DNA of 54,029 bases, the filler included, from Diploschistes diacapsis (Eukaryota): the NCBI GenBank assembly GCA_023645945.1. It is 4 parts of 4 records of this genome, joined end to end, with 100 filler letters (N's around TTAATTAATTAA, not from the genome) between each part and the next. Parts side by side here need not be neighbours in the genome. Positions count along the whole stretch, not along the records: positions 13,562 to 27,014 come from JALAIB010000661.1; 3 more parts are not named here. One strand, given 5' to 3'. Under the pieces are notes generated by a model, which did no database searches, was not told the origin of the DNA, and worked only from the letters and a program-made list of their open reading frames with translations. The translations under genes were made by a program, and so were the position numbers. This document shows positions 7,047 through 30,984 of the stretch, one piece after another; positions within the stretch are counted from its first letter, which is position 1, and each line of letters begins with the position of its first letter.

Positions 7047-7499
7047 AAATAGAAGAGTCCTGAATTAACGGTTGACATAGAACTTATGGCGATATATATA
7101 TTAGGAATATGTTAGAACCCGATCGCTAATTATGATGTATGATGACCTTAGGTTTGTCATTTTCGTGGAGGCTTTTTTAAGCTTTCGAACACGCGGGAAA
7201 TTTTGATATATATGCTACAGAACTAAGTTAGAGATGTTATATTCTTCTTTCAAGAGTGATTGATTGTCTCCGCTACGAACTTTCGGACATTATTGCATTA
7301 GGCAAGCATTCGGTAGGTATTCGACCCTTATAAGAACATTAGTAGGTCTATAATCAACGTTTTACGTTCTATACGATTCGGGCGGGGCTACATATAGTAT
7401 ATTCTTAAGACTTATTATAACCTCATAGAGACCGTTATTAATAAGGATGGTATAAAATATAGGTAGGAGATCTGAATAGCTTTGGAGTAATAGATTAAG

Positions 7500-8936: not shown

Positions 8937-9329
8937 GATTAGTTTATTTTACAAAGACCATAACGACGTTTAGCCCTTATATACAGGCGATGAGATACTA
9001 TATATATAATGGGTAGAAATTAAGAAATTTGGTTATTTGGTAGCTTCGTTATCGTTAAATCTCTATTTATTTGTTGCTCGCCACCTATAAGCCAAAAATG
9101 TGCCCAGCTAAAAAGAATGACAAGTCTCTCGTAAAAGCTTTTCCCATTATGGAAGTATCCGGTTCCAGAACTGGCGCTAGTATGTGTAAAAGTAGGTCCG
9201 TCCTGCCTGTACGGAGGGAGAGGCGTGGTACCTAGGGCTACCCTTGTTCTACGATTATAATACAGATTTGAATTGAATTATTAACTGACTTACCTTCCTA
9301 TTCAACAACAACGCGTATCGTTTTCTTAC

Positions 9330-11028
9330 ACGATAGCATTCGATTTAGAACTCCTAGATACCGCGGCCGTTGATGTGCTACTTAAATTACCACGACCAGC
9401 CTTCATAATTATTATTATTAACGTAATCTTTATCATAATACTAATATAATAATTAAAGTTACGCCGGCCTCGGTTAATAAAGAATATATATATTACTAAA
9501 TTAATAGATAGGAAAAAAATAATTACTAAAACTCGACGGGATTTCGTTTAGAATTATGGTAATATACTGATCGAAGGATATTAAAAGTCAGATACAGGTT
9601 TCTTCTATCTACCTTCCCTAGCTAGCGAATGTCTAATAATTTTCACACGGTATATCGAGAAGTTCAAGAACGTACCCGATAATATTATCGATTTTACTAA
9701 TAGTTTTTTAAAAATGTTTATAGGCGAGTATACCACTATCGGGCGGAAATGGCATTTATATCCTCCGGTGATCAAACGTGATCTCAACGTTCATCTATCC
9801 GAGATAACCTTAAACGTATAAGAAGAAATTTACGATGCTTATGAAACCCTAATGCCGTCTTGTGATACGTGGACCAAGGTGGATATGGCCTAAATGTTTG
9901 TCGAGATCATTTCTCGTGCTTTGAATCAGATGATGGGCGGTAAAACATTAAGTCGGAATCCCGAGTGAATAAAGATTTCGATCGATTTCACCGCCGACAC
10001 TTCTATGGCCGCTATAAGCTTAAAGTAGTATCCGTTATTTTTAAAACCCTTAATTCAGTACTGGATCCCTGAAATAGTTAAGATCCGTTATCACGGCATC
10101 GTGTCGCGTGAAACTATAGTTCCCATCATCCGTAAGCGCCTCGCGGAACAAGAACGGATAAGCGAGAAACATTAACCTCCGGTTAATCTACTATAGATGT
10201 TATGAGATGCTGCATAAAGTCCTAATAAGACGCCGGAATTTATAACTTATACGGCGTTAGCTATCAGCTTCGCTACGGTGCGTACCAGTTCTTCAATACT
10301 TATATATATCTTGTACGATCTTTGCACGCGATTTAAGTACGTAGAATCACTACGATAGGAGATCGAGACCGTTCTCGTAGAAGAAGGTGATTTTATTAAA
10401 CCGGTTCTAAACCGGCTCGTTAAGTTAGATAACTTTATAAAAGAATCGTAACGTTTTAATCCTATTATATTTAATAAATAGCTCCCGTTTTTTTTATTTT
10501 TTATTAAAAGGTTTATTTTTTTCTCGTCTCGACTTCGATTTCATCGGTCTTTCTTTTATATTGGTTTTTTTTATTTATACGTTTAAAATCATCTTCGGCC
10601 GTCTTATCCGGCGCGACCTATGTTTCAACGATAGTCTCGTTATTCCTCGAAATACTCTTATCGCTGTCCCGATTTACGCCGTCATGCAAGATCTACGTTT
10701 TTTTTTTAATGATTTTGACGGCTTCCGCTTCGCCTCGCCGCGCACGGACAACAAAGGTAGTACGATAACCTCGTCAATCCAGTAACTATAATCCTCGTTC
10801 GTCACTATTAACTAGTCCAATTTTAGCTGGAGATATGGCAAACATATCTATTCCGGCCGCTTCTTTGCCGCGAACGAGATCAAGATTATTGTCGCGTTCT
10901 TACTGGTTCATTACGAGTTCAAGTTCGTTGGCGAACGATACGAGCGTTTACGGAACCTCGACTTTGAGCTACAGAACATTGCAAACCTGAGCGTGAATAT
11001 TCTAATCAGGAAGCGGAAGGCGAGATAA
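9330..11028 (+). pseudogene. Cytochrome P450 (ent-kaurene-oxidase/CYP68-like group), RIP-inactivated; 5' end approximate
   Basis: KLDNFIKES*RFNP (ExxR), FDGFRF (PERF), SWRYGKHIYSGRFFAANEIK (degenerate WGYGKHACPGRFFA heme motif). Intron near 10472-10590. Confidence 0.85.
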
Positions 11029-11392
11029 TGGTCGTAAAAGAGAACAGACGTGGCTATTGATCTAAAAGGTTGATTTTGGATGTGGCTAAGAGTTGTAAGA
11101 CGTGGCCCATCTTGGAACAGAAACAATGAACGAATTCTATAAATAGTAATAATATTAATACGGAACGATATATATTTATTATATTAAGCGTTAATAAGGG
11201 ATAGTTTAAGACCGATGAATCATGGGTAAGCTTATATTAGTTATTAATACTTATACGAATGTTTTATAAGTACATGAATTTATAAAAGAGGTTTAAATGG
11301 TAGTAATAGTTCAGTGTAATTTTTTTAATTAGTCGTTATTATTCTTATTTATGAGCGATTTTTTCCCCCGGTTCTTGCAATTATGTAATTAT

Positions 11393-13461
11393 TTAATCCT
11401 TTAGTTTCTCGTCCGTTCTCGTTATTAGCCTCAGGCCGATTCCCTTTCCAAGGTTTAACGTAACCTTGCCAGCGTTTTTCATCCAAATGTCGGCGTGTAT
11501 CTTGACCGGGTTCTCGTTCGGTGCTAGCACGACGCGGTACGTTTGTAGTAGCGTGACGATATAGGCTATGAATTCGGCTTGCGCGAATTTACGCCCAAAA
11601 TACGACCGCGTATCGTCGTTGAAGGTTAGTAGCGTGCCGCGCATTTACCGCGTACGGTCCGCGCTTACGACTTTTTTCTCGGGGGCGCCGGGACCCGGCG
11701 GAGTACTAGACGCGGTTGTTGTGTTTTGGTAGCTGATCGTTTTTGTTCCGATCGGAGCCGGGGTGGCGGTTGCGAGGTCGTTGTCTGACGATAAGCCCGC
11801 TGCGGCTAGCCAGCGAGTCGGGTCGAGGACCTCGGGGTTAGGCCAGTAGTGGGGGTTGAAGTGCACGCCGGGCGCCGAGAGGTAGACGCGTGCTTCGGCG
11901 GGGAGGACGTGGGGCGTGGGCGGGCGCGAAGAGTCCGTCGGATGCGAAGCGTAGATGGTATTGCCGTTATTCGTTATTTTGGTGATGAGCGTAACGCTAG
12001 GATAGAGGCGGAAAGACTCGTATTATTTAAAGGAAATAAAGAAAAGAAAAGATTAAAAAATAAGCTTAACGTGTTATACTCTAGATGGAAGAATATATGC
12101 ACTGCAGAGAATTAGAGAATAAAACCAAAGAATAGGCATTGAGCGAAAAGTAGGACGTACCATAAAGGCGTAAATATAGACAAGCTTCTCGAAATCGTTT
12201 TTATAAAAGAGTTCAGGACGGCCTTCGGCCGTAGCGGTAGCGATAACAGTGCTGATTTCGGCCATAATCTTGGTTTAGATATCTTAATAAAGGGCGAGGA
12301 GAATTAAACCGTAAATGATGGCATTCGCGGTCGTTTCATAATTTATGAAGAGAAAAATATCTTGATCAAAAGCCGCTCCTTGGTCTAAAGTATTTTATTA
12401 AAGTTTATTAAAACAGATACGCATTTATCTGTAAGAAGATAGATAAAGAGGTTATTTATGATTTTATTTTTAATAAATAAGTCTTTACGGTCCTGGCCGG
12501 TTGTTTTCTAATTTAATTAGGCCTCGATGCGGGATGCGCGTATGATAGACGTCAGTAGGTTCGCCCGCGACGTGTTGTTCTGATGTTGCTTAGGTTTTTT
12601 TTTTAAATGAGCACGCTCGGAGCGAATTATGCCGCGGATATAATTTTTTAGTTACTAGTATACTAGTTTAACGGGCCTTAGCGGTGGACATAAGTTTATA
12701 AATCAATTCGGAAACAGTAGGATAAGAATCATATTGGCGGTTGTGTCGTTAATAGTCTTAAGGAATGAAAGTTAGAAGTTTGGCGTCACGTCTTTCTTTT
12801 CTATATTATTGATTTAGTTAAGTCGTTTGTCGAAGCCGGTTAGCGAAATCACAATCAGTGTTAGTAAATTAACGTTTATATGAAGTTTACGTCGACTTTT
12901 TTTAAATTAGGTTTCCGATAGCCGGCGTGTTTGGTAGACCGTCTCGTCCTATATTATGTCGTTAACGCCCGATAGATTATTAAAAGGCGGGGTTGTTATT
13001 CGGACGTGGAATCGATAAGTTTTATTTTCGGTCGTGGCGACGTTGGGTTTATATAGCTTAAGTAATTTATATTTGTTCGGTAATTTGATAAAATCGTTAC
13101 GGCGGTTTATGACATTTCATCTTATGCTCGCGTCGGTTGAATAGCAGATGATACCTTTCGGAAATATATATAGAAAGATGTCATCGTATTTCTCGTAAGT
13201 ACGATACTTATTCTTTTATTATTAATCCTTGATGATGAAGCGGTATTAGCGAGGTTATCTTTTTTTTTGTTTTAAGTAACGGTTATAGATGTATCGAAAG
13301 AAAGGTATAAGTAGGAGATTTAAGATTTTAGTCTTTAGGACTGGCGTGATAACGTAGGGAAGGCTTGTAACTCGTGTTTAAAAGATATATCGAGTAAGGT
13401 TTATAGTCTTATAAACGATTAATAGAATTATTAAACTTGTAAAAAAGAAGAAATATTAATG
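11393..13461 (-). pseudogene. Cytochrome P450, RIP-inactivated; 5' end probably cut by the contig end
   Basis: FLFINYETTANAI (I-helix AGxETT-type), YWPNPEVLDPTRW, MRGTLLTFNDDTRSYFGRKFAQAE (degenerate FSDGARSCLGRKFA heme motif). Premature stop at 11645. Confidence 0.85.
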
Positions 13462-13561
13462 NNNNNNNNNNNNNNNNNNNNNNNNNNNNNNNNNNNNNNN
13501 NNNNNTTAATTAATTAANNNNNNNNNNNNNNNNNNNNNNNNNNNNNNNNNNNNNNNNNNNN
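13462..13561. other. Assembly gap with artificial six-frame-stop spacer
   Basis: N44-TTAATTAATTAA-N44, identical at three positions in the window. Confidence 0.97.
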
Positions 13562-14479
13562 CCCCTCATCATTCTTTTTTTCTTTTTTTTATTCTTTTTT
13601 TTGAAGCGAGTCCAGGATACATCCCTATCCGGGAAGCGGTAGAGAAGAAAACAAGAGGAAACTTGGCGGAATAGCTGGGCATGTATATTATTATATAGCT
13701 TTGGATCCAATGTATATATTATGCAATCTGTGTTTATAATCTTGTCCTTCGGGACATTTGGTCAATTTGAAACGATACAGAGAAGATTAGCATGGCCGTG
13801 AGTTCGATTACCGTTGAAGTCAATGAATGATGCCCTTTACTGATGTCTGGCAGCCTGCACTAAGGATGACACGCTTCTACAAAGAGACGCTATAAGTTTT
13901 TTTTTTTTTAGTTTTTGTTCTTGTAAAAAGAGAGAGTAGTAGCATTGTTGATTGTTCAACATATTTGTGAATCTTATAATAAAAATTTTTTTACAGAGTC
14001 TAAAGGGCATGTTTGATTGATAAACTGCGCTTCTATTTTTGTTGGCTCAAATGTCTAAGTGCAACCCCCAGCGCGGTTGAGATGCTGGATTTCCTGCTGT
14101 TAATAGCTTTACATATCGTTCTCTCGCGTTGACCGGGAATCTGTCATTGCAGCATAAGCAGTAAGCGCACCACTGCTGAAGGAAGCAAAGCTGAAAAAAA
14201 TGTTGCCCGCGGAGAGTGAAAACCCCATCACTCCGACCCTTCTCTTATCTTCTTCCATAGTAATACCATTAAACATTCTTTCATGTTCCCACTTTATCGT
14301 CACACCAATGTTCTAGTACTTTATCATCCGTCAAAGGTTTCTATTTCCGCACTATCCACAACGTCCTCATCACACTCAGCCCTAACGCTGTGCCTTATAC
14401 CTGTCTCTGTCTCTCAGCTCTTGGACCTTCTTTAGTTTCCTTGGATCAGCCTTGCGGGCTTTCAAGCTTCTTGGATTGG

Positions 14480-15652
14480 CTCCCGAGCCTTTATTGCGGG
14501 GAGCTTACATGTTGACTGGCTTTATATTCACGAAGCAAGAGGAGCAAGAGTCCATACGCCAAAGATCCCCCACCCTCCTAGGCAAGTTCCCGAAGCGATT
14601 CCTCGGATGTAAAGCCGCGCCTTGCGGCCCACACTTGTAGAACTCTGTCCATAAAGAATGCCTCGCCGGGAATGTCGCTGTGTTCCCTAGCGACTGCTCT
14701 GCAATCCCGGAACACAACAAGGCTACTTTGAAAGAAGTTATGTTGCCAACACTCCTCTCATACTATGATGAAAGCAAACTTAACTGCTGACACAAAGTCC
14801 GATGCTTCTTGACACTTGGTAAGGTTAAGCAACCCTGTTGGGTCCAGGCACGCCATGGAGAACCTTCGGACAGCCTGGCCACTAATAGCTACTCTCATAT
14901 GGAATGAGGTTTGACGAAGCTCAAGAACCGTGTCTTTTAGGATCCTTTTTTGGCCGTACGTGGAGCTTTTCCCGCCTGTCCTGATGCAATTAGGGCCACG
15001 CGCGCATTACACGCATCGAGGACATTCGCAGTGGGAGGCTCAGGGGTTTCTTCTATCCTAGTAGGCATTTTGGCAAGAATGAAGACGAGCTCTTGGAAGC
15101 CTCGAGTCAAATGGCCAGACAAACGTCGGAAGTTGGCTGATACCGGTCTTCTCGGTACCCCTGCTGGATACTAACGTCGTTGGGAACGAGAGCAATATCA
15201 CTGCATGGGTTACCTAAAGCAAGGACGAGGTTCGACTCATCCTGGAAGCTGCTGTTCAAGCTGTCCTCTATTTGAGTGAATGCGGTTCGAATTGCTTCAG
15301 AAGCCTCCATTTCATGCGATTGGACAGTCTGGAGCAGCTCCGTGACGCCACTCGGAACGATATCGGCAATGCTATGGTTTAACGCCGCCCAGGACTGTTC
15401 TTTCCTCATCATTAGGGTAGGAACATGCTGTTCCTATTGTTCTCACTCTTCTTTTTCTTGATGTTGCCGTTTCCTTTTCAAGGCCAGCCGCGAATCTCCT
15501 GGTCTTTCGAGTCGAAGAACGCAGCTCGAAGTGTTTCCTTTTTTGGAGTACTCAAGAACCCCAATTGCTCTATGGGATACGTCACCATGAGGCCAAAGTT
15601 CTTTGATGTGCAGTTCCGATAGATCGGCGGAAGCCATTTCTGCTGCTGTCAA
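14480..15652 (-). pseudogene. Possible decayed gene of unknown family
   Basis: Successive protein-like minus-strand segments (15443-15652, 15107-15412, 14937-15122 and FRDCRAVAREHSDIPGEAFFMDRVLQVW near 14620-14715) broken by stops and frameshifts. No recognised motif. Confidence 0.25.
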
Positions 15653-17498
15653 GAGGTAGAATTATAAATCTTAAACTGCATATTAATTCCGTCGTAGTTG
15701 ATAGGAACGGTTCCTTGTCTGTTTTAAAAGGCACAGCGACTGAGCTAGGCCAACTCCCTAGACAAAAGATAACCGCTTCCTAGGGTGGGGATATGGATTT
15801 TGAGGGATGAGCGACTCGGGTGGATAAAAATTTTCCTATGTTGTTATAGGCGGTGGATCAAGACGTCCAAATTGTCTAATATACTCACGACGGTTGACTT
15901 CCATTGTCGGTCGGGAAGATGAGATATGTTCCAGCGTAAAGCCATAGTCAACTGTTGCCCGCCTGTGCCTGTATTAATTCTCTCGACAAGTCGGTGGTAA
16001 CTACGCGTGTTTGAAGATTCTTGATCTCTGCATCAGCGGAGGCATAGGTATGCTCAACGATCCAATTTGGTCCACCGGATGATAGTATCGTCGCTTTATA
16101 TAGCCAGCCTGGGCGATCATCTGGATATAACAAGACCTTATATATATACAATGTGTATTCGAGGATCGGTCTTGTCGAAAATATACTCAGATCTATAGAG
16201 ATGTCTACAGACTTCTTCATTCAATGGTTGACTTTCCCAAACTTTATCTGAAAAATCCGATGTAAATTGTCGATGTTATGCCGGGCCTCTGATTCGACCT
16301 TTTTCCTTTAGTTGGGATGACTTCTCCTTCGGTTCCCTGATTTGGACATTGCGCTCTTGAGTGGACTCCGCCCCATCATGGATGTTATGGTTTATTTCCT
16401 TGCCGAGTAGGTTGGGCACAATCGCTTTGATTGAATTTGTTTGCCCGGTCGAGGCCACGAGGCAGCGTGGGTTTTTCTTTCAGAAGTCAATGTTTTGATT
16501 CGGTGGCCTTGAAACGCTCCCTTCAACGCAGAGTCGTTAGGGGGCGTTTCCTTATACGCTGGCCCCTCTTCCTTCCAGAATGAACCAGGGCGAGGCTGTA
16601 CAATTCCCTCTGTTCCGCCATAAAGGGGCTGTAGCCAGAATCGCGCTTCTCAGGCCAAATCGCCGCTGATGGGATTTTCGGAAGGGGGAAGCCGGGCAAA
16701 GCCAGGCTTATTTTATATACCTGTTTGTGATTCGTGGGGTGGGCGTGTAGAAGCTGATCGGCCCTCTGAACGTATTTTCCAAACAAGATCGGCGGCATGT
16801 TAGACTTTAAGTTTCTTTCCCCTCCTTTTTCAAAGTACGAGCGCGAGCGATAAACATTAAAACTCTTTGCAGTCCCCACTTACTGGATAGGGGGATTTTT
16901 TGTGCAGATACATATAGGTGGGCACCAGAAGAAGGATGTGTGAACTGTACGAGTTCCATGACCGCGTGCTTTGATGATATTTCAAAGCTTGAACTCTCTT
17001 CCCAAACCGCTGAATGAACTAACTACAGCGCAGCGGCTAGCAAGACAACCATAGGATCAGAAGAGTAAAAAATACTACCTCTGCGTGTCGGATCAGTCGT
17101 CCCCTTCTGAAATTTCAAAAAGCGAGTCCAGCAGCTGGCTTGCCTTCGGGATCTGATGCTGATCCGGTTCGCTCATTATCTCGAGGGGCCAAGTCATCGG
17201 ACGCGCAGAGGTAGGACGTTTGTTTTAAGATTTTGAAACACTTCCAGAAGTCTTTTGCAAAAGCACTCTAATCATATAATATCGGTAGTATGACATGATG
17301 GTTCTTTTAGGGAAAAAAGCCTCCTCATCATCCCTCTGCTCCTTGCTGTCTTTTTTTCCAAAGCTACGACGACCAATATATCTCTCCATAGGCTACAATG
17401 CGAAAGCCAACCAACCTCTCTTCCCTGTCTTCTCCCCATTTTTCATATCTCCTATGGTCCGATACAATTGGGCACTTTATTGCTAAACTACAACGATA

Positions 17499-19292
17499 TT
17501 AGGAACTAGATGGAATCAAGCCTTCAAGATACCCCCTCAGACCGGGATCACACGCATATACATACGTTCCTCGGATCCCGCGCGTCATGAGCACGGCATA
17601 GATCTGCGTGATGTATTGCAGCAGGTCGTCGTCTGTGTAGCTTTTGCCGAGCGCCGGGTTATTCTCCTTACCCTTCTTGTCAAAGTACGAGTTCCGATCG
17701 ATGGAAAAGCGCCTTCGCTCGGGGTCGAAGCGCAGATCGGGACCGATGATGACACCGACGTAGTTCAGGTCGTAGCCCTGAACCGTGTGGATCGATCCCA
17801 CTTCCTCCAGCGCGTTGCTGGAAGCGATCCAGTCGGTGGGCGTGCTGTTCCAGCGGAGCCGCGTCTGGCCGATTTCAATATCGAACGCGCTCCTGTCCCT
17901 TTTGCTCTTCCACTCCCATGCGTAACCCGCGACCATACGTGAAAGGCCCACCTCGGCCTCGCGTCGGAAGATCTGGCCTTGCATCTGTGCGACACTGTCG
18001 AACAGGCGAAAGTCGTATTCCCCAAAGTCGTGTCTCGCTCGTGGGAAATCTTGCTTCGCTGCTGGAAGTGAGGAAGGGCGAGGATCGAGGATCCAACGAA
18101 CGTAAGATATAAAGTCCGATCCCGCTTGAACTCGCATCTGAGTCCGAAGCTGAAAATAACGCCCCGAAGCACGGGTGTCGGCAATGAGTTCCGAGAGCAG
18201 CTCCGAGGGCAGATCGGCTGGTCGAACGCTCTGTGCTGCGTCCAGGAAGAAGATCTGATGTCGGCTCTTCGTCCTCATCCAATCAAGCTGCGTCTTGCTA
18301 GTGTCGTTGCTGCCGAAGAGCTCTCTTGTGATGGTTGCGAACTTGGTGTTCAGCCTCGCTGATGATTGGTTAGCACGTTGATTGAGCCGATGGGTCTCAT
18401 CTACTAAAAGCAGATCGAACACCTGATCTGCTTCTCCTACGTCGAAGGGCGTCATGACCATGGAGGGTTTAAGCCCAGGCGTCTTGCGGAAGACCTTCTT
18501 GATGGATTCTCGTAAAGATTGCTGCGGCACCACCAGACCGATCCGCAGATTCTGGAGGAGCCTCTGATTGGTTTCGGTGAAGAATTCCGAGAAGCGCGAG
18601 TCGCTGTCTAGATCTTCAAGCGAAGTAAATGTTTGAATGTCAACGAGCAATTTGATCATATAGATGGCTACGACCGTCTTGCCTGTGCCCGGATCGCCCT
18701 GGATCACTGCCATGCTATTGGCGCCCCTTTCGAGGTCGATGAAGAGTCCCTTGACAATTTCATCCACAGAAGCCGCTTGATCTTCCGTAAGTGCTTTGAA
18801 TGGCGACAATTTGAAGAGATCACTGTTCTCGATTTCAGGAATACTCCGCGTGAAAACTCCATCGCGCTTGAGTTGTTGGAAGATATTGCGGAAGGTCTCG
18901 CGGTACAACTCTCGCTGGTAGTACTTGGCCTCCGTGATCCCGTTGTTGCGGTTAAGCACCCGATTGGCGCCTTCGCCAGCCAACATTTTAATGAGGTAGG
19001 ACTCCAAATCAAGGCAGACCGACTTGTTGAACCTCTCGTCGATGAGGACGCGGACATTCTTCAGGTGCTGCTTCGCGGGCGTCTCGAGGTGCTGCCGCAT
19101 CCGACCGGCGGCGTTGAGCGATTCGCCAACGTAGATATCCCTCAAACCGTTTGGATTACCCCGTGCGGTGGTAGCATGGCCGTCGTCCAGCACATACACG
19201 ACAGGCCAATTGCCATGCTTCTCATCGTGCAGCTTCCAGCTCATGACGGCGTCTTTGGAGAAATCGAGCCGCGCGATCTTACAGCTCATCAT
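17499..19292 (-). CDS. GIY-YIG nuclease fused to DUF2075 (Schlafen group-3-like SF1 helicase), bacterial type, intronless, 597 aa
   Basis: VVYVL...IYVGES..GRMRQH...LESYLI..NRN (GIY-YIG motifs); Walker A GDPGTGKT; Walker B LLLVDETHRL; QMRV, IHTVQGYDL and YAVLMTRG (SF1 motifs IV-VI). Uninterrupted GC-rich ORF. Confidence 0.9.
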   Translation of the reverse strand: MMSCKIARLDFSKDAVMSWKLHDEKHGNWPVVYVLDDGHATTARGNPNGLRDIYVGESLNAAGRMRQHLETPAKQHLKNVRVLIDERFNKSVCLDLESYLIKMLAGEGANRVLNRNNGITEAKYYQRELYRETFRNIFQQLKRDGVFTRSIPEIENSDLFKLSPFKALTEDQAASVDEIVKGLFIDLERGANSMAVIQGDPGTGKTVVAIYMIKLLVDIQTFTSLEDLDSDSRFSEFFTETNQRLLQNLRIGLVVPQQSLRESIKKVFRKTPGLKPSMVMTPFDVGEADQVFDLLLVDETHRLNQRANQSSARLNTKFATITRELFGSNDTSKTQLDWMRTKSRHQIFFLDAAQSVRPADLPSELLSELIADTRASGRYFQLRTQMRVQAGSDFISYVRWILDPRPSSLPAAKQDFPRARHDFGEYDFRLFDSVAQMQGQIFRREAEVGLSRMVAGYAWEWKSKRDRSAFDIEIGQTRLRWNSTPTDWIASSNALEEVGSIHTVQGYDLNYVGVIIGPDLRFDPERRRFSIDRNSYFDKKGKENNPALGKSYTDDDLLQYITQIYAVLMTRGIRGTYVYACDPGLRGYLEGLIPSSS

Positions 19293-19599
19293 ACTTCCTG
19301 CTGTTTCCTCGGGCCTTATCTACGGGGTACTTTTTGCGCGTGGCTTCCAGCTTCTCCAGCACAATCTGCTCGGGATCGGCGCCGATGCGATCGGCAAGAA
19401 GGAGACAATAGGTTAGTACGTCGGCGAGCTCTTCACGCACGCGCTGAGGTTCGGCACCGGCACTCCACTGGAAGCACTCGAGCAGCTCGCCGGCTTCGAT
19501 GGAGATGCTTTTGGCGAGGTTCTCCGGCGTGTGGAACTGTGCCCAATCGCGTTCGGCGACGAAGGCCGCGAGGGCGTCGTGGACTGTTTGACTGACCAT
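19279..19599 (-). CDS. MazG-like all-alpha nucleotide pyrophosphohydrolase (dCTPase/RS21-C6-like), bacterial type, 106 aa
   Basis: FVAERDWAQFHTPENLAKSISIEAGELLECFQW...EELADV...KYPVDKARG...KY: ExxE...EExxD metal-binding pattern. ATG at 19599. Stop lies 14 nt inside the next gene. Confidence 0.9.
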   Translation of the reverse strand: MVSQTVHDALAAFVAERDWAQFHTPENLAKSISIEAGELLECFQWSAGAEPQRVREELADVLTYCLLLADRIGADPEQIVLEKLEATRKKYPVDKARGNSRKYDEL

Positions 19600-19735
19600 G
19601 GGGTCCACGGTAGAGACGAGTGGGGTAGGAGGGATAAAAATCTAGGTATCTAAAATATATAGTAAGGAGTGTAAAATAGGGGGTTGAGTAGACCATGACT
19701 GAGAGGGCATAGCAGCCTCCGTATATATAAATAAG
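19600..19735 (-). promoter_or_regulatory. Putative fungal core promoter for the MazG-DUF2075 unit
   Basis: TATATA-like boxes near 19655-19662 and 19722-19730 on the minus strand, followed by a C/T-rich leader up to the ATG. Confidence 0.35.
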
Positions 19736-21599
19736 ATGGGGGAACTCCAGTCGGTCGGCTCCGGCCAGGCACATCGCTGCGTATCGCTACACCATCTAGA
19801 TATGAGTTTATTACTGGCCCATTTAAGCGAGAACGCTCATTGCGCCTACGAGAGTGGCTCTTTAGCTCGATGTAGTTGTGATTTTCTTAAAAGGACGTCC
19901 CGAGATGGCGTCTTGTGCCGCCCGTGGAGTTGTGAGGTGGTGGTCGTCAGGCTACAATAAGGGCGTGGGCATGCATGCAGGTAGCTTACAAGGTTCAGAA
20001 GAAAAGGGAGGACAGAACCGCAACAGCATAGCACAATCCCTATGCTGGAGACACTCCAGTTTGTTTTTGATTGAGACGATATGGAAGAGTGGGAGCATGA
20101 CGTGCTCTTGAAAGATAGACGGTAATATGTCCGCATGTCTACACAGGTGGTCATGAAGAAGCAGCTTTTCGATTACAGTTTTCTTTGCCCATGGATGACA
20201 GACTGTTAAGTTGCATGTCCAGAACATGCTACTCCCAAAAAGGATTGTTTTACTTCTTACTCGCACACACCCAAGCGGACTCTCCATTGAAGGACTAATC
20301 ACCAAGCACCCCCCATCCCCATGCCTGTGCTTCGGCAATGCCAGTCCCCCGTTCTTCCCCATCGCTCAATAGGTCCTAGCCTACCTCCTTTGTCAAAACG
20401 CAAGCTCACTGTCAAGAACAGCATCATTGTTACCCCCCTAATCCTCATCCTCGCTCTCCACCACAGCGTCGCGTCCACGTACTGAGCCTCGTCCAGAGCG
20501 TAACGCCTGTCCAACCTCCTCCTCCACCAGCAGTGGTGCCCTACTCGCCAACCCCCCCTCTCAATCCTTTCCATTGGGGCCGCCCGGGGCCCATGCTCTT
20601 CAACTGCCTAACAAGGTGTCGCCGGCACAGGAAAAGCGCGATGATAATACGGGCGCAAGTACTAGTGCTCGAGAGCTGGGCGCGCCTGTCTCTCTGAATT
20701 GATTTACCGTTAAAGTCTCGATAAGCCCAAGCTCGAGGGGCACCAAGTGTGTCGAGCGAAATTTGTCGAGGAACCACTCGCTGCCCCGAGCTCTCTCCCC
20801 GCCTTGTTCTCTGGAGCCCGCATGGGGGGCGATGGCAGTACGTGCGGAAGCGGAATGGGTATTTCAGGGGTTTGCTTGACCAAAGCCCCAATTTCCCCCT
20901 CTTATTACAGTCGGTGTCCATGTTCTATGTCGGTGGTTGAGGCCCAGGCATTGTGGTTCTTGCTGTGAATTTTTGCTTGGTCAGGGTCGTGATCCTAATT
21001 TAAGGGCTCCTTCAAGTGGCTGGCGGATGTCGCGCCAGTTGGCTCTCAATAAAAGTTTGGCCAGGCTTGGGATGTCTGTCGTTTACCTCCCTCCTGATTT
21101 TTCCTGCAACTTGCTTCTCTGGTTTCACTACCAGTCCATGTTGTGATGTCGAAGTTTGGCTTACCTCTTATCGCTTGAAACTTTGTATCCGCCTGCATTC
21201 TCAGCGGGTTCTTCCACAGCTCTTTCTCTCTGTCACGCGGCAATTGCACAGAAACCCAGCCAATAATGATAAGAAAAGAAAGGGAAAGTAGGGGACTGCA
21301 CTTTGCTGTGGTGAATACAGAAGGCCTTTTTGCATAACACGGGCTACCAATGCTCAGTAACAGCAGTGGCAGCTCAATGACAGAGATCGTAGTTCAATCT
21401 CAGAAGTAGCAGCTCCGGTAATGTACAAAATCTATAGGTATGTTCAAGTTTGCAGCACCACGATTATTAATAAACCATACTCCACCAAGAAAGACTTTGT
21501 CTCACCTATACCTCTGCTTTTCGCAGAGCACGATTCATCTCCATCACGCCAGCTTCCCCCCGCCTTTACGCCCCTCAATTTCCTCCCCGCTACCTGCAG

Positions 21600-23434
21600 A
21601 AGCACGATAGTCCCAATCGCTGCAGCAACGATCGCGGCTTGGATTCCGAAGCTCTCGCCGAAACCCATCGTCTAGCCTCACTACATCTGGTAGTACCCGA
21701 CCTGAAAGCCGCCGGCACTGCGGAAAAAGTTCAATAAACCGGAAACCTCGGCCGTGAGCGTAGGATAACGTTCCATGAGGTACGCCAAGATGACGACGGA
21801 GGCAATCGTTACACCGCAGACGTAAATACTTAAGGAGAGATACGGGTACAGATTAGCATTGTAGCTAGATAATCGTGTGCTGAGGGGGAATAGTGGTAGG
21901 AAGGAATGGAAGTAACAGAAACGTACCCCATCCGATTACCGCAATTCCCACGCTCCCATGAAACGCCAGCGACTGTCCGACCGCCACTAGGCCTGGTATA
22001 ATGAGTACGGCAGCGACGTAAGCCGTCACAAGTCTGGCCTCTGGAAGGAAGACACCAGCGTGCATCTTCACGTAGCGCTTCGCGACAAAATCGTTGAAGA
22101 AGTGTCCGAAGAGCTCCCCAACGAGCGCGCCACTATGGGCGTGAAGTAGAGGTAGCCGAGGGAGAGGGGAGAGAAGCCGTCCCCGGCAGGATCGCGGGTA
22201 AGGAAGAGGATGGAGGAGGTTTATGTTGATACCGATTGCCCTGTATAAAGATGAGTGTTCAGATCAGATACGGAACGAGGAACTCATTTTTATGGTGCCT
22301 ACCACATGAAGACAAGCATGCTTTGAGAAGCAACTAAAACGGAAAGCTGGCAAGGGTCCGGGGACGACTTACTAGAAAACAAGGCCGAGAAGCAAGACAG
22401 GTTTGAACAGCACTCTCACTGAACGAACGCAGCATGACCAGAGGGAGGAAAAGTAGGTGCAATTGCGGAGTTGCTAGATGCCGAGCATGCGCATGATACG
22501 AGATCCTCGAAGGGGCTATGCGTCGACTGGTATTGATCGATTGTAGTATGTCTCGTCTGCCAAAAGGAGAACGAGCACAAGATCCAGACAGACAATGGCA
22601 AATATGGAAAAGATCACGGCGCGCCAATTTACGCCCAGTGGGTTGTTGTTGCCAGTGGCTTCGAGGATGAGTTAAGCAAACAGCAGTGACAGATAAGGTG
22701 ACAGGATGAAAAAGTTAACCCATATTCTAATCTTTCGCGCATATTCATGGAAAAAGAACGTATCATAATACTGTCAGATGGGTCATCAAACGGGCATTAC
22801 AGTAACCGAACCTTTTATACAGGCCAAGCCAACAACTTAATAGGATGAGAAGAAGAATCCGGTGAGCGTACGAATGCATAGTTGACTTGGAAATTGTTCG
22901 TTAAAGCGGTAATGAATACACAGATGGCGCCGAGGAAAGTGGACGAGAACATAAACCGGAAGACGCCCCCAAAAGGAGCAAACGATAGCCCAGAAAATAG
23001 CGCCAATACCGAGGAAAGCCAGATTCAGATTACCCGCGAAGTTGACGACGTTAGGGTTTGAGACCTTATTCAACTCCTTGCACCTGGATCAGAGGCACAC
23101 CGCACGCGCTCGAGAAGTCTGCAAGAAAGGCCGTGAGGGAGACTACGAAGAGCATGCGGTGCTTCTTCGCCTGAAACAAATTCAGAGGGTCGTCTCGGTT
23201 TGATGTTGGTTGCGGGATCAGGATAGTCTGTACAGTTTAGGCTTCTATTGATGCAGGAAAGGCGTCTTCTGCACTCGCGTGTCCATATCTGGCCAGCTTC
23301 CAAGAGCCAACATCAATACGGCCTGCTTGAGCATCCAAGAGCACATCCTCAGTGTCCTCTTCAATAACGGGACTGCACGTCTCCGCGGGCAGCTTGGAAG
23401 GCTTCTGGTCACCATCTGTCATTTCCTCCATCAT
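21600..23434 (-). pseudogene. MFS transporter pseudogene (fungal, intron-containing); 3' end approximate
   Basis: LIPQPTSNRDDPLN (PQP..DPLNW-type), FWGRLPV (motif A), PEARL, LLNFFRSAGGF. In-frame TAA at QGVE*G plus frameshifts. Intron signals present. Confidence 0.8.
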
Positions 23435-24590
23435 AGATTATCCGAGCTCTGGAACCTGAATTGGGCGCAGAAGTTCCTTTGGCCGATGCCTCACAGCTTG
23501 AACACGTCTGACGCAGAGATAGTGAACGAAGTGAAGAAAGCAAGGAATCCACAGGCTGTATATGCTCTTCATTGGCTCAAGGTATTAGAGTCCGAATAAG
23601 GGAGAACGATGTGAAAACACGGAAAGAGCAATCCAGCATTCAAGCTGAGACAAGCAGCGCACGCCTATTCGAACAAATTTACCTCGCTCAATAGCTTTCA
23701 CCTATTCGAATTCAAAGAGTACAAGTGACCAATCACTCTCTTTCTATAATTGAGCAACAAGCGGGCTAACCGAAGAGCCCAGAGGCGATTCGGATTCTGG
23801 AGTTCCAATATGGGCGAGATTCACTTGCATGCAAGCTAGAGTGCTTCATAAGACATATCCTGCTATCGCTAGATGACGCCTCAGATGCTTACCAAGAGTC
23901 TTCTGAAGCCGGCTGCCTAAGATAAGGTGATGGAGGTTGTTCTTACATGGAACGTCTTGCTCTGACCCGATATATAGAATCCTCTGGGTGTTGTCACGGT
24001 ATCATTAATGCGTGCATTTCAAAGTAACTACGGAGCAGTATATATATATATACACGTAGATAGAGATTTCCCTACAAATTTGGCATAGCAGTCAGTACGG
24101 GTGAACCTTTATCCAGTCTACCAGGACCATCTACTTCGCTGCTGAGCGTTTTGACTCCCCGCCATCTACATCTACCTCTCCAATACAAGAGCAACAACTA
24201 CTAATGATTATATCCAATCTGAAGGAAGGTAAGGAGTCGGCCTTGCGGAGGAGTCCTGGAGTCTCCAATGTTGTATTCAAGCTTTAAGTAGTTCACATAC
24301 TGGATTGGCTGTTGCTGCTGCACATCTCGAACGCCCCTAATTTCAAATCTCTAGGTTGCATGTGCCCCTTTCCCGCCAACAAACACTTCTACTCTTGCTG
24401 GCTGTCTACTTAACCTTTCCAAAAGCCCACTTATACTTTCAACGTTCTTTCGTCCCTTTTGGATTTTGCACGGCTTGTCACTTTGCTTGTTGGTTGGCTT
24501 GATTGGCTCATCAAAGACCTCTTCTTGGCCTGCAGCATTGCGCCCTTGCGCCCTCACGCCCTCGCGCCCTCTTTTTCGTCATCGGGCATC

Positions 24591-25600
24591 ATGTCTGACG
24601 CGCCGGATGGTTGGCAGAACGCCCCTTCCATGGATCCTTATAGCAATTGGACCAATCAAGACCTCTTTAGTCCGTTCACCGACGGCGTAGGGGCTGAGTG
24701 AGTTTTTTTTTTAGCCTTGCTGATCTTTGGGGCAGCTTCACGTTGCAGTTGCCGGATCATACTGTTTTTTACAATGGCTTCAGCAACACTGACGGACAGC
24801 CACAATACTCAGCGAATAACGCTGCGTTCCATACAACCAGCGCAGATGTGGGGCAATCGGCAGCAAACGATACTGGCATGGCCGGTATTATTACCCAATC
24901 AGATCAACGCGTGTCATCTTCGAGCTGTATTCAGCCTGGACTTACCATGCCTATGGTATTCACTCCATTTAGTATGCCCGCACACGCTGCTGGCATAGCC
25001 AACTACCCTGGACAGGTAGCTCAAGGACCAACAACATCAACCTTTAATCACCCTGGATTTAATATACAGGGAGAGTCTCCTCTGCCCGTACTTGACGGCA
25101 TCGGAAGTGGCTCCAAGCCTAGTGCTTCCACAAACAAGCAAAACCCGACTACCGAGGGACTCACCGCCACCAAGACCCATGTGTGCGCAACCGAAGGCTG
25201 CAGGCTTTCTTTCAAACGACGATCAGACTTAAGACGCCATGAAAAGAAACACGACTCGCCAATTTGGCATTGTCTTGAGCATGGCTGCCGATTTCGTGGT
25301 CAGCATGGCTTCTATCGTCTTGACAAGCTCACGTCACACCAGACTAATAAACATGGTCTTGGCTTAAAGCATGTTCGCTGGGGCTGTTCCTCGGCGACCG
25401 AGTCGCCGACTCGCATTATCGAAGTGCCGTTAAGCCTAGCCGGACTCAAATCAACGGACCGAATTCTTCTCGTTCGCAGTTCTGAACATATGAAACTCCC
25501 TGATAGGTTTGAAGTCGATACTGATGGATACCTTTTGTGGGTCATGGTTCAACAAGATGGCAGCGTTATTCGTGGAAACTGGTGGACATTTCATGGTTAA
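24591..25600 (+). CDS. C2H2 zinc-finger protein (two fingers), putative transcription factor
   Basis: ATG 24591; short intron near 24690-24750 (exact sites ambiguous); CATEGCRLSFKRRSDLRRHEKKH and CLEHGC..GFYRLDKLTSHQTNKH. Confidence 0.75.
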
Positions 25601-26962
25601 CGCTCAGAGCTGATGATCGCTGCTTCGTGCGGTATCATGCAATATCAAGACCTTTTCCTTTGGATAGTTTTGGAATCCCAATTGCTGAGTATATTGAGTT
25701 CGACGAGTCACTTTCATTACGGCATTGGCGCACCTTTAGACTAGTCCCTTGAATTCTGCTCAACCCTGTCGCTACAGCTCCTGTCGTTTTAGATCAAGAA
25801 CAATTTCCTTGGTGAACGATGATGCGCAAAAGCGTTGTTCCCGTAATCTCATGTCTGCGGAAGGCAGAAGAAGTGTTCTCGATTTGTAGCTGCAAAGTTA
25901 TCGTACATCATGGCCACGAGTACGTGTTGATGCTCCTCAGTGCCTGGCGAGTGAGCGAAAAGCCCCCTCTGAGTTCCGGCGGGATTTCAGACTTGTCTGA
26001 ATAAGAGTGGTATAACTGTTTTGGTGCCAATTTCACCGATTCTTCCTCTCTGGGCACAGTGACACAGAATCAATTGATACTTTGATAGTGGAGTCCCACC
26101 GACTACGCCTGATCGATTGAAGTCTAATAAACATAATAACCATAATTTCATGGTGATTTTACACCCTTTCAGGGCCTAAAAGCCCCATCGCGGGCTGCTA
26201 TACGCAATCTAATCCTATCCTTTTCCCAAAACCCCCGAGGGCCACCAAGCCGAAAACATTTTAATTCTTTTCGTCTGTCAATCACCGGGCTATCTAGGTC
26301 ATTGAAATCTTGCATATGTTCAGACATCGCATTCAGCTCAAAAGTATTTAAATCGGTAGCACTGGTAGCGGGTTGTACAGAACTTACGGAATAGTGACGA
26401 AGGATTCCCTAGAATAACGGCAAAAGGTGCTTCAGATCTCATGAACACGGGGGACAGATCCTGCCGAGATGCCTGGGCCATAAGAAACATGTCTGGAGGT
26501 ACTCGACGATAAGAGGTTCCGGTTGAGGTTCCGGTTGAGCTCCGAGCCCCGGACTAGCACGGCAGGCAGTCGATCGTCCTTCTGTAGGCTAGTATCGTTC
26601 AAAGTGAATTGAAGAAACTCCTAGAGAAGTACCTCGTATAGGGCCCCGCTGATATTCGCGGCAAAAGTCTTCTCAGCCACACTTCAACGGCCACGCCACT
26701 AGGAAAACCGATAGCCTATATGCAGCTGCGCCACAGATGACGTCTTTACCCGTCCCAGATTCCAAGCCAGGCGCGCCCGTTCGCTTGGTGCACAATTAAA
26801 ATAAATGCAAAACATGGACGACTTCTAGTATCCTATCTTCCTATTCACTCTCCAGAAAACGACCTTAGCAAACAAAGCCCACCGACAATCCTAAAAGTCC
26901 CCTCCTCTCTCTCTCTCTCTCCCATTCCCCAAGCCCCAAAAAAGCCACATCCACCGGCAACC

Positions 26963-27014
26963 ATGATCTCCGGCATCCTCCTCATCATCATCACCGTCCT
27001 CCGTACGCCCACCC
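26963..27014 (+). CDS. 5' fragment of a small hydrophobic protein, possibly Pmp3/UPF0057 family; cut by the gap
   Basis: Good start context (AACCATG), MISGILLIIITVL, then a GTACGC donor-like site. Confidence 0.3.
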
Positions 27015-27726: not shown

Positions 27727-30700
27727 CTACGTAGGCATAGGAGCCGCGGCCCCAGTCATTTCGTCAATCGTCTCTACTGGAGCGCAGCTACAGAAGAGGT
27801 TCGTGTCGCCGTAAGCTGCTAGTAATCAGTATGGTTTAAGAGGGTCTCCGGCTGCACAGAACTCACCGTCATCTAACCTGGTCACGCTAGGCCAAAATTT
27901 CTTCTCCTTTAGCCAAGGCAAGGGATAAGCGGCTTGCTCACGAGTATAACTCCTTTTCCAGTCGTCGTCCGATACTAGATCCTTCATAGAATGGGGCGCC
28001 ATCTTCAGAACATTCCCTTCTCTTGGCTGGCTGCCGTTTTCAACAGCCTCGATTTCCTTTCGAATAGCAATCAGAGCATCGCAAAAGCGATCAATTTCTT
28101 CCTTGCTTTCACTCTCTGTCGGTTCGATCATCAAAGTGTTCGCCACTGGCCAAGACATTGTTGGAGCGTGGAATCCAAAGTCCTGTAGTCGTTTTGCAAT
28201 GTCGATGGCTTCTACGCCAGCAGTCTCCTTAAACTTGCGAGTATCGAGAATGAATTCATGCGCACACCGGCCAGCAGAATTGGTGTATAGAATGGGATAG
28301 TGAGCCTTGAGGCGCGACATGATGTAATTGGCGTTGAGAAGTGTGATCTTCGTTGCATGTGTGAGACCTTGCCCACCCATCATCTTTATATAAGCCCAGC
28401 TTATGGGTAAGATACTTGCACTACCCCAAGGGGCGGCGCTCACAGGCGGTATGGCTTTCTCTCCGCCAGTACTTACCAAAGGATGACCGGGCAAAAATGG
28501 GGCTAGATGAGACTTGACACCAATGGGCCCAACCCCTGGACCACCACCACCGTGAGGTATGCAGAAGGTTTTGTGAAGATTCAGGTGGCAAACGTCCGCT
28601 CCAATCTCGCCGGGAGAACACAGGCCAATTTGCGCATTCATGTTTGCGCCGTCCATGAAAACTTGACCGCCATGCTCGTGGACCAGATCGCAGACTTCTT
28701 TGACCTGGGGTTCGAAGACGCCAAAAGTACTTGGATACGTGATCATGATTCCCCCAATTTCTTCGCTATACTTTTCACATTTCGCCTTGAGGTCCGTGAT
28801 ATCAAGATTCCCGGTTTCGGCATCGCACTTGATAGTCACAACCCGCATGCCAGCCATGGCTGCGCTTGCTGGATTCGTACCGTGGGCAGAGACGGGAATC
28901 AAGCAAATGTCCCTTTTCTTGCCCGGCTGCATCTCCTGGAACTTTCGAATTATGCGCAGACCAGTAAACTCTCCCTGCGCGCCAGAATTTGGCTGCAAGG
29001 ACACTGCATCAAAGCCAGTGATTACAGCAAGATCTTCCTCAAGCTCTTCAATCAGAATCATGTATCCTTTCGCTTGTTCGATAGGGACAAAGGGGTGGAT
29101 TGAGGCGAATTCTGGCCATGAAATAGGAGCCATTTCTGTGGTTGCATTCAGCTTCATAGTGCATGAGCCGAGAGGGATCATGGAATGTGTTAGTGACAGG
29201 TCCTTAGATTGCAGATGATGGATATAGCGGAGGAGTTCGGTCTCAGAGTGATGGGAGTTGAAGACAGGGTGCTGCAAGTATGGTGTCGTTCTTTTCATCC
29301 TGGAAGAACCAAGGATGGAGTCCAGCGTGGTGAGTTTCAACGAGGCAGTGATTTCATCGATATTAATTGGATTTTCCCTCGAGAAGTTTTCGAATATTGC
29401 CAAAATATCCTTGAGGTCACTTAATTCGATGGTCTCGTCAAGTGTGATTCCGATCTTGCTTGGATTTCTCATTCTCAGATTGATGGCCTTATTCGCTGCT
29501 GCCCAACCAACAATCTCGGCTGCCTTTTCACTATCGAGCTCAACGGTCACTGTGTCGAATAATATACGGCCTTCTTCGTCCTTGCCGCGAGAACCCGTAT
29601 GAAAGCTCAGTCTCCGCAACCCTTCTTCGAGAACACGCGAATACGCAACTATCCGGTTCGCTATGTCGCGGAGGCCCTGGGGGCCGTGATAGACGGCATA
29701 AAACGCGCTCATGTTGGCGAGCAACGCTTGAGCTGTACAGATATTGCTCGTTGCCTTTTCCCGACGGATGTGCTGTTCGCGGGTCTGCAGAGCTAGTCTC
29801 ATAGCTTTGTCACCGAGACGATCCTTTGACACTCCAATCAAGCGACCAGGGATTTTGCGCTTTTGTTTTTCACAGCAAGCAAAGAAGGCAGCGTGCGGCC
29901 CACCATAGCCAAATGGAACTCCGAATCGCTGAGCACTGCCAAATGCAATGTCTGCGCCAAACTCTCCAGGAGGCTTCAGAATGGTAAGAGCAAGGAGATC
30001 GGTAGCTACGCAGACGGTGCCCTGCAATTCATGGACAACATCCGACAGTCCCTGGAAATCATCTACTCCACCTTCCGTGTCAGGATACTGCACGAGAACA
30101 CCAACCAAGTTGTCACCTAGGCTCTTGATACCACGGTAATTGTCGGTCAACACATCCATAACCTCTATCTTTAGCCCGAAACCCTCAGCTCGTGATTTGA
30201 GAACTTCCAAAGTCTGCGGGTGGCATAGATGCGAAACCGCGAAGGTCTTCCCTGGTCTTTTGAGGCGAGATTGTGAAAGACCATTAAGGGCTAGGGTCAT
30301 GGCTTCAGCTGCAGCTGTGGATTCATCAAGGACGGACGCATTCGCAATAGACAGTCCAGTAAGATCAGTAACCAAGGTTTGAAAATTAAGTAATGATTCC
30401 AGACGGCCTTGGCTGATCTCTGGCTGGTAAGGAGTGTAACTGGTGTACCAGCCTGGCCCTTCTAGCACGTTTCTCTTTATCACTTCCGGAACCCTTGTTC
30501 CCGCATAACCGCAGCCAATGTAGCTCCTCATCACCTTATTGCCTTGCGAGATTTCCTTCAGTCTCCGTAATAATTGACTCTCGGAAAGCCCTTCGCGACC
30601 GTTTATGTGCTCTAATGGCTCATCGATACATAGATCCCTGGAAGAAAGAATGTCCGCCGGTAAAACTTGCTTCACGAATTCATCCAATGACCTTACTGGA

Positions 30701-30984
30701 GGATCAAGCGAACCCAGCATCTGCTGGACACAGTCGTGTGAAGGCCCGACATGGCGCCTTGCAAATGTGTCCAGGGGGCCAAATACAGAAGTTCCCTGGA
30801 GGGGTTGTTCATTCTGTGGACTTCTACCTGCAGCGTCGGAAGCTAAGAACTGGAGCGCAGGAATTGTATGAGTACAGCGTATGGAGCTAGTTCCTGTGCA
30901 GCGAAGAGGGTAAACAGCAAGAAAAGGCTTCCTTGTTGATGATCTTCCCACGTTGAACAACGCTTGACATACTTTTGCACGCAT
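27727..30984 (-). CDS. GCV2: Glycine dehydrogenase (glycine cleavage P protein), mitochondrial
   Basis: YTSYTPYQPEISQGRLE, QTREQHIRREKATSNICTAQ, PLP lysine motif HLNLHKTFCIPHGGGGPG. Intron 27816-27866 restores RLDDAYGDTNLFCSC. Arg-rich presequence. Confidence 0.96.

Follow-up and report, generated by a model that had tools for sequence, protein, structure and literature searches.

A bacterial gene pair with overlapping reading frames in fungi, probably expressed by leaky scanning of a bicistronic mRNA

The stretch of DNA analysed here (the window, 54,029 nucleotides (nt)) comes from Diploschistes diacapsis and consists of four parts of four records of assembly GCA_023645945.1 that were joined with filler letters, so that parts standing side by side need not be neighbours in the genome. 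Its second part (positions 13,562 to 27,014, JALAIB010000661.1) carries two overlapping open reading frames (ORFs): ORF1 encodes a MazG-like pyrophosphohydrolase and ORF2 a DUF2075-type helicase. The comparison of bacterial and fungal homologues supports the derivation of the pair, including its overlap, from a Microbacteriaceae-like Actinomycetota operon that was transferred into fungi. In fungi the transferred operon is probably expressed as a leaky-scanning bicistronic mRNA from which both proteins are made. The evidence that carries this reading is the loss of ATG triplets from the fungal ORF1 in all three frames, including those out-of-frame ATGs that would arise only from particular codon neighbours. 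The best reading of this pattern is that ribosomes get to the helicase AUG by scanning through ORF1, in the simplest case by leaky scanning on one mRNA; the single mRNA and the actual bypass of the first start codon (AUG1) are what we infer from the sequences. The features of the pair are as follows.

19279..19599, minus strand: ORF1, MazG-like / DCTPP1 (RS21-C6)-type all-alpha nucleoside triphosphate (NTP) pyrophosphohydrolase, 106 codons plus TAA; start ATG at 19599-19597, stop TAA at 19281-19279
17499..19292, minus strand: ORF2 (597 codons and a stop), DUF2075 / Schlafen-group-3-like helicase whose N-terminal region is weakly GIY-YIG-like
19287..19295, minus strand: tandem helicase starts agtATGATG (ATGs at 19292-19290 and 19289-19287), with A at -3 of each
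19279..19292, minus strand: ORF1/ORF2 overlap of 14 nt, ATGATGAGCTGTAA; relative to ORF1, ORF2 is read in the +1 frame
19293..19598, minus strand: ATG-free tract, the whole of ORF1 between both starts, in all three frames
19594..19602, minus strand: AUG1 in the context cccATGgtc (-3 C, +4 G)
19600..19622, minus strand: conserved leader block cactcgtctctaccgtggacccc, directly 5' of AUG1 and common to most fungal loci
19651..19733, minus strand: candidate promoter region with TATA-like runs at about 19733-19721 and 19662-19651

The distance from the ORF1 start to the ORF2 start is 307 nt on the minus strand, and the purine-rich, Shine-Dalgarno (SD)-like hexamer AGGAAG lies 5' of the helicase start at 19299-19294. 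A bicistronic mRNA adapted to eukaryotic ribosomes had been proposed in an original prediction made from the window alone, and everything that it stated about the sequence holds: the positions of the ORFs, the 14-nt overlap, the AGGAAG and the tandem starts, the absence of ATG in any frame between the MazG and helicase starts (from 19598 to 19293), and the start contexts with C at -3 of the first AUG and A at -3 of both helicase AUGs.

The bacterial origin of the pair is visible in both genes. The closest prokaryotic helicases are 49-68% identical and belong to Microbacteriaceae and other Actinomycetota, and bacterial MazG proteins (loci L001-L080) are 59-78% identical to the window copy. Helicase homologues with 72-84% identity are found in Cenococcum, Trypethelium, Bathelium, Cadophora, Fusarium, Stachybotrys, Ilyonectria, Alternaria, Westerdykella, Monosporascus, and several Mycena. 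In a midpoint-rooted maximum-likelihood tree of the helicase (128 rows, quick search), the 29 fungal-like rows (13 named fungi, the window, and 15 metagenome loci) form one clade with a Shimodaira-Hasegawa-like approximate likelihood ratio (SH-aLRT) support of 100, which is nested in Microbacteriaceae and within which the metagenome loci interleave with the named fungi. Both genes were placed in 133 loci, in nearly all of which the MazG gene lies directly upstream of the helicase gene; the start-to-start distance of 307 nt and the 14-nt overlap are common to nearly all of these bacterial and fungal loci, and the overlap is kept in every fungal copy seen. A retained bacterial operon, as originally suggested, is thus supported in its origin by the helicase tree and in its overlap by the identical junction geometry in bacteria and fungi. 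The idea that the junction itself displays adaptive signatures had to be given up: nearly all bacterial homologues share the overlap as well as the preceding purine-rich stretch, and their helicase AUG likewise has A at -3 (AAGTATGAC), so that these features are bacterial inheritance. The A at -3 is present in all fungal copies. The tandem ATGATG is found at the helicase start of 10/16 distinct fungal sequences, and nearly all bacteria have ATGAC at this position.

The signal that separates fungal from bacterial copies is located between the two starts. Loci were divided into fungal-like and bacterial-like at a cut of 70% identity, and distinct sequences were counted.

Fungal-like, 17 distinct sequences: no ATG between the starts in 16, one in L081; the 307 nt downstream of the helicase AUG contain 7.2 ATGs on average
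Bacterial-like, 107 distinct sequences: no ATG in 4, 1-8 in the other 103 (mean 2.84); 3.25 on average over the same 307 nt downstream

Two of the four bacterial-like zeros (L122 and L123) fall below the 70% cut yet stand in the fungal clade, and the true bacterial zeros are 2/105 (L021 and L023, both Gryllotalpicola). Bacterial homologues are hence not equally free of AUGs, since 103/105 carry 1-8 of them and 16/17 fungal sequences carry none. Because fungal GC content is lower, ATG density is higher in fungi everywhere but in ORF1; low-GC bacterial copies have 1-6 ATGs between the starts. Judged across these homologues, the absence of ATGs is far beyond chance. At the protein level, 67/70 fungal-like MazG cluster representatives are without an internal methionine (Met). 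The absence of in-frame Met was rejected as a fungus-specific signal, as 33/34 of the closest bacterial MazG proteins among the top matches also lack an internal Met, and the discriminating signal is the out-of-frame ATGs.

An out-of-frame ATG arises from a NAT codon (N, any base) before a codon that begins with G, or from an A-ending codon before a TGN codon. Codons at risk in this sense were compared with safe codons of the same kind (NAY, with Y for C or T, in the first case) in 16 intact fungal ORF1s, in ORF2 of the same loci, and in 97 bacterial ORF1s. The fractions refer to the ATG-creating codon or, at safe sites, to the same T-ending or A-ending choice.

Fungal ORF1 (16), NAY before G, at risk: 0/41
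Fungal ORF1 (16), NAY, safe: T-ending 76/157
ORF2 of the same loci, NAY before G, at risk: 188/461
Fungal ORF1 (16), A-ending before TG, at risk: 1/33
Fungal ORF1 (16), A-ending, safe: 300/1273
Bacterial ORF1 (97), NAY before G, at risk: 172/470
Bacterial ORF1 (97), NAY, safe: 304/937

As the last two lines show, there is no ATG avoidance in the bacterial ORF1s. When the fungal copies are reduced to 11 lineage representatives, the contrast between at-risk and safe sites persists with 0/29 versus 54/109 (Fisher 6e-8); about 11 fungal lineages are separated by a synonymous divergence (dS) of 0.3 or more. Safe NAY sites differ in 158/431 comparisons between representatives and are nearing saturation. 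Of the safe NAY columns, every one with 10 or more such codons (9/9) is T/C polymorphic, and C alone occurs in the at-risk columns 7, 8, and 60. Single codons behave in the same manner: codon 8 is GAC or AAC where the next codon begins with G and GAT in L087 where it does not, and codon 77, GAT in three sequences, reads GAC in front of a G in L081. In these comparisons the avoidance is context-specific and confined to the fungal ORF1, and on the strength of this codon evidence we take the ATG purging to demonstrate scanning through ORF1. The at-risk sites at codons 3, 7, and 8 are likewise purged, which implies that scanning must start no further downstream than roughly the first 10-20 nt of ORF1.

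Both ORFs are maintained as coding sequences in fungi. ORF1 is intact in 16 distinct fungal copies with 106-111 codons, and the median pairwise ratio of nonsynonymous to synonymous divergence (dN/dS) among the fungal copies is 0.075, with dS ranging from about 0.4 to saturation between lineages. In ORF2 the codons just past the overlap (about 9-38) have a dN/dS of 0.115 at a median dS of 1.19 among the fungal copies. By these ratios both ORFs are under purifying selection and are translated in fungi. The end of ORF1 is variable, with stops at codon 106, 109, or 111; 9/16 intact fungal ORF1s reach 109-111 codons, and six of them have CAA, CCA, TCA, or GCA in place of the stop. The change from TAA to a sense codon extends ORF1 by five codons and leaves the helicase AUG (AUG2) unaltered. 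At the other end of ORF1, position -3 of AUG1 is C or T in 21/21 fungal loci for which the context was printed, and positions -1 and -2 vary. Fungal genes prefer A at -3.

Three loci in which ORF1 has decayed deserve separate mention. In L122 and L123 (both about 2690-3001) and in L135 (about 2684-3001), the MazG frame is broken by frameshifts or stops, and the former ORF1 tract is still free of ATGs; the helicase is intact in L122 and L123 despite the decay of MazG. L123 has lost AUG1 as well, and its helicase AUG is the first ATG in 398 nt. These copies fit a role of the tract as the path that is scanned toward the helicase start.

The region upstream of AUG1 is of interest for the entry of the scanning subunits. 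About 22 nt immediately before AUG1 are conserved among fungal copies. In bacteria, a conserved block CTGCTAGGTTGACGnn abuts the MazG ATG (L001-L080 and others; 16 nt before the start, for example, at 208-223 of L029). Its likeness to a -10 box (TAnnnT) 6-7 nt from the start, together with the lack of an SD sequence, suggests a leaderless mRNA in bacteria. The fungal block ctctactgtgaaccc before AUG1 resembles the bacterial block; the two are presumably homologous, and the transferred fragment may thus have included the bacterial promoter. The leader block is preceded by a CT-rich tract in seven distinct fungal sequences including the window ("pattern A"), and in these the nearest upstream ATG is 97-280 nt away. 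Eight fungal loci have a conserved ATGATGACATAG-like element about 40 nt upstream of AUG1, which in 7/8 of them is predicted to lie inside a plausible intron of 52-74 nt in the 5' untranslated region (UTR).

L118, L086, L096, L088/L089, L142, and L107, about 30-110 nt upstream of the MazG ATG: putative 5' UTR intron

The donor of the predicted intron reads GTAAGT, GCAAGT, or GTACAT, its acceptor is a YAG located 27-33 nt before AUG1, and the predicted exon 1 contains no ATG over at least the 37 to 190 nt that lead up to the donor. With the element inside such an intron, splicing would remove all nearby upstream ATGs. L118 and L086 have CAG in place of the TAG, and gene callers lengthen the MazG N-terminus as a result. 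The window itself has its nearest upstream ATGs at 19696 and 19710, and the TATA-like run at 19662-19651 would imply a very short leader.

Taken together, the following course of events is proposed. An operon of a DCTPP1/MazG-like pyrophosphohydrolase gene, followed by the overlapping gene of a nuclease-like DUF2075 helicase, moved from Microbacteriaceae-like Actinomycetota into fungi, and the pair persists in this fungal chromosome with its 14-nt bacterial overlap intact. Both proteins would be made. The 40S subunits would load upstream of, or at, the MazG AUG and some of them would bypass it owing to its weak context (the pyrimidine at -3) and to a leader that is probably short. They would then scan about 307 nt of ORF1, cleared by selection of ATGs in three frames, and in this way reach the helicase AUG, which amounts to leaky scanning on a bicistronic mRNA. 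The leaky-scanning part of the original prediction is strengthened by the AUG depletion, which is specific to the fungal ORF1, and by the weak context of AUG1; neither the SD-like motif nor the A that precedes AUG2 at -3 counts toward it, both being inherited.

Several observations weigh against leaky scanning or limit what can be drawn from the data. The window by itself shows an absence of ATGs that is only mildly beyond chance and thus weak evidence, for synonymous resampling of its ORF1 yields a mean of 2.0-2.3 ATGs and a probability of finding none, P(0), of about 0.04, and the window contains 31 other ATG-free gaps of at least 300 nt (20 on the minus and 11 on the plus strand). The fungal sequences share ancestry, so that the codon counts are not fully independent and the P values are approximate. 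The intact fungal copy L081 has one out-of-frame ATG at -185, and 3/70 fungal-like MazG representatives (P0200, P0201 (Fusarium ambrosium), and P0239) have 1-2 internal Met, one of which would, as far as the protein tells, sit in a strong context. The +4 position of AUG1 is always G, which makes its context intermediate and not poor; the sub-optimal, intermediate grade that we assign to it follows the general fungal preference and not a Kozak matrix of this genome. Moreover, the block from -20 to -1 is conserved as a whole, and the pyrimidine at -3 could partly reflect inertia.

The locus tags of MazG and the helicase in F. ambrosium are far apart (CDV31_005729 and CDV31_013475), and the MazG copy of this species may no longer be followed by the helicase.

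Among the alternatives, the one that shares most with leaky scanning assumes a single promoter with mixed transcription starts, where transcripts beginning upstream of AUG1 would yield MazG and those beginning at or just past AUG1 would yield the helicase with ORF1 as their 5' UTR; as a variant, AUG1 could be skipped owing to a very short leader. ATG purging would in that event amount to the ordinary avoidance of upstream AUGs. Both readings have in common the scanning through ORF1 from a common promoter, and the purging, being silent on the 5' end of the mRNA, fits leaky scanning past AUG1 and transcripts starting at or just past AUG1 alike. The TATA-like run at 19662-19651, only about 52-63 nt upstream of AUG1, the CT-rich leaders that abut AUG1 in the seven "pattern A" sequences, and L123, which works without AUG1, all agree with mixed starts. 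The purge at codons 3, 7, and 8, however, requires subunits to load either upstream of AUG1 or no more than about 10-20 nt away from it, and mixed starts do not account for the conserved pyrimidine at -3 if the helicase mRNAs exclude AUG1. We therefore consider mixed starts rather unlikely. That the ATG-free state was simply inherited from an ATG-free fungal ancestor, or that the locus is silent, is a highly improbable explanation in our view. All fungal copies do go back to one origin and P(0) per sequence is 0.001-0.2, but the state persists over a dS of 0.4 to saturation between lineages, in which the safe NAY columns became T/C polymorphic (9/9) and the at-risk columns 7, 8, and 60 remained all C; a silent locus is contradicted by the purifying selection on both ORFs.

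The overlap of the ORF1 stop with the ORF2 start invites the thought of termination-reinitiation, in which ribosomes finish MazG at the TAA and restart 11 nt upstream at the helicase AUG. It would be a eukaryotic counterpart to translational coupling in bacteria, as found in some mycoviruses, and coupled termination/reinitiation is reportedly known from a fungal virus. It predicts no ATG purging of ORF1, though, and the spacing of stop and start is not fixed, given that the ORF1 stop shifts among codons 106, 109, and 111 at a constant AUG2. Since reinitiation after an ORF of 106 codons is also generally inefficient, we regard it as very unlikely. A spliced fusion, with an intron that joins the MazG and helicase frames into one protein, could appeal to the seven fused GenBank gene models (P0123, P0060, P0062, P0098, P0108, P0112, and P0120, the first of which is in the same 90% cluster as the window helicase) and to GTATGA at -2 as a possible donor in 11/16 loci. 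The seven models nevertheless use seven different join points, no in-frame GT..AG pair is conserved among the 16 loci, two loci are without any candidate intron, and the best intron (-2 to +149/+152, in 10/16 loci) would remove helicase codons 1-50 and with them codons about 9-38, which are under purifying selection. A fusion offers no reason for ATG purging either. On account of the scattered joins, the missing conserved intron, and the loss of selected codons in the best candidate, it was rejected as extremely improbable, and the fused models are probably a systematic annotation artefact of the overlapping frames.

Within the fungal clade of the helicase tree, the branching departs from fungal taxonomy. 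Cenococcum clusters with two Leotiomycetes (Cadophora and Bisporella), and the copies of Mycena, a basidiomycete, are sister to all those of Ascomycota at 73-75% identity. Branching of this kind hints at fungus-to-fungus transfer or patchy loss.

The location of the gene pair in a fungal chromosome, as opposed to contamination, is supported by what else the window carries, namely, an intron-split phosphofructokinase gene, the genes listed below, and an AT-rich repeat-like block. Phosphofructokinase is encoded on the plus strand (31514-33969) as two ORFs about 50 nt apart, and this break is consistent with a short fungal intron.

27826-31017, minus strand: GcvP (glycine-cleavage P protein)
34992-37094, minus strand: NAD kinase
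41738-43903, minus strand: C2H2 zinc-finger protein
51549-52760, plus strand: Mpv17/PMP22 protein

The AT-rich block (1-14000) has 30-47% GC compared with about 50% elsewhere in the window and looks like repeats degraded by repeat-induced point mutation (RIP); the transferred pair is about 3.5 kb away from its edge. The flanks of fungal-like loci generally have 39-51% GC and sparse ORF coverage, and the bacterial copies have 55-75% GC with densely packed neighbouring genes. Furthermore, the window helicase shares a 90% cluster with a gene model from a metagenome-assembled genome of a lichen fungus. Within 14000-23000 the pair was not found to be flanked by direct or inverted repeats of 25 nt or more, so there is no sign of a terminal-repeat mobile element at that scale, and no Rfam family reached its gathering score within 16500-21000.

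Profile searches identify both proteins. ORF1 matches the Pfam family PF12643 with 77.7 bits (E 8.2e-22, cutoff 27), and its nearest solved structures in a PDB sequence search are dCTP pyrophosphatase 1 / RS21-C6 (E 2.5e-20). Its translation contains IEAGELLE and EELAD, seen in the sequence and kept in the fungal copies, which may correspond to the ExxE...ExxD metal-binding acidic motif of MazG-like / DCTPP1 enzymes. Pyrophosphatases of the DCTPP1 type hydrolyse non-canonical deoxynucleoside triphosphates. ORF2 matches PF09848 with 220.4 bits (E 5.7e-65, cutoff 24), and its translation shows the P-loop GDPGTGKT and the DExH-like box LLVDETH. The GIY-YIG match (PF01541) on residues 53-102 is below threshold with 18.8 bits against a cutoff of 22.6 (E 0.002), and some ORF2 homologues are named "GIY-YIG domain-containing" in UniRef. 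No relative of the helicase was found in the PDB by sequence search, and an NCBIfam search returned P-loop matches only, far under the cutoff. The two proteins, a nucleotide-cleaning pyrophosphatase and a nuclease-like helicase, may perhaps represent a bacterial defence-type module that now serves fungi. Membership of a known defence system was rejected because PADLOC gave no match for MazG and only weak partial matches for the helicase (AbiO, Nhi, PDC-S41, and PDC-S14).

Leaky-scanning bicistrons are known from the nuclear genomes of green algae, where, as reported (PMC11892635, PNAS 2025), a weak Kozak context of ORF1, AUG depletion before ORF2, and short 5' UTRs go together and leaky scanning was verified in vivo by reporters. 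The fungal pair is alike in its weak ORF1 start, the few AUGs before ORF2, the stronger ORF2 context, and the small ORF1 protein, and its leader is probably short, as are the algal ones (PMC11892635). The algal loci are ancestral eukaryotic genes with short inter-ORF spacers, established by Iso-Seq, Ribo-seq, and reporters (PMC11892635), whereas the fungal pair is of bacterial origin, has ORFs that overlap by 14 nt, and is known from sequence comparison. A bacterial operon acquired by fungi has a precedent in the enterobactin (ent) operon, which was transferred to Wickerhamiella/Starmerella yeasts and kept as linked functional genes (10.1101/399394). These genes gained intergenic regions and are described as mostly monocistronic, with leaky scanning being speculated to have aided their early expression (10.1101/399394). 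Unlike them, the fungal MazG-helicase pair keeps its overlap and bears a scanning signature in ORF1.

In viruses, ORFs I-III of rice tungro bacilliform virus are said to form a leaky-scanning polycistron. Viral leaky-scanning polycistrons resemble the fungal pair in having a long AUG-free upstream ORF, but they are viral RNAs and not a chromosomal locus derived from a bacterial operon. The Microbacteriaceae/Actinomycetota pair, finally, has the same proteins, order, and 14-nt overlap and differs in its 1-8 internal ATGs and the -10-like box at the ATG. In the open-access literature searched, nothing was found on a MazG-DUF2075 pair in fungi, and horizontal operon transfer in connection with fungi led only to the ent-operon literature. 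Within this literature, leaky-scanning bicistrons and operon transfer to fungi are known, and a transferred overlapping operon that was recoded for scanning appears to be new.

The finding has practical sides. It flags an annotation error, two ORFs being fused through invented introns; it would offer a compact natural design for the expression of two proteins in fungi; and the context-dependent avoidance of ATG-creating codon pairs can be used as a test for other scanned-through ORFs. As to how a polycistronic bacterial operon can be expressed after its arrival in a eukaryote, an intermediate or alternative solution seems to be preserved here, widespread and thus directly testable, in named fungi that include Alternaria, Fusarium, Stachybotrys, Cadophora, and Cenococcum. 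Several of these fungi can be cultured in the laboratory. The broader proposition, which the evidence leaves evenly poised, is that the pair may be a true eukaryotic bicistron across several Ascomycota classes and Mycena, whose first cistron was recoded AUG-free by selection and which was neither split nor fused. If true, the pair would be the first natural example of a transferred operon whose "eukaryotisation" via leaky scanning is directly legible from the sequence.

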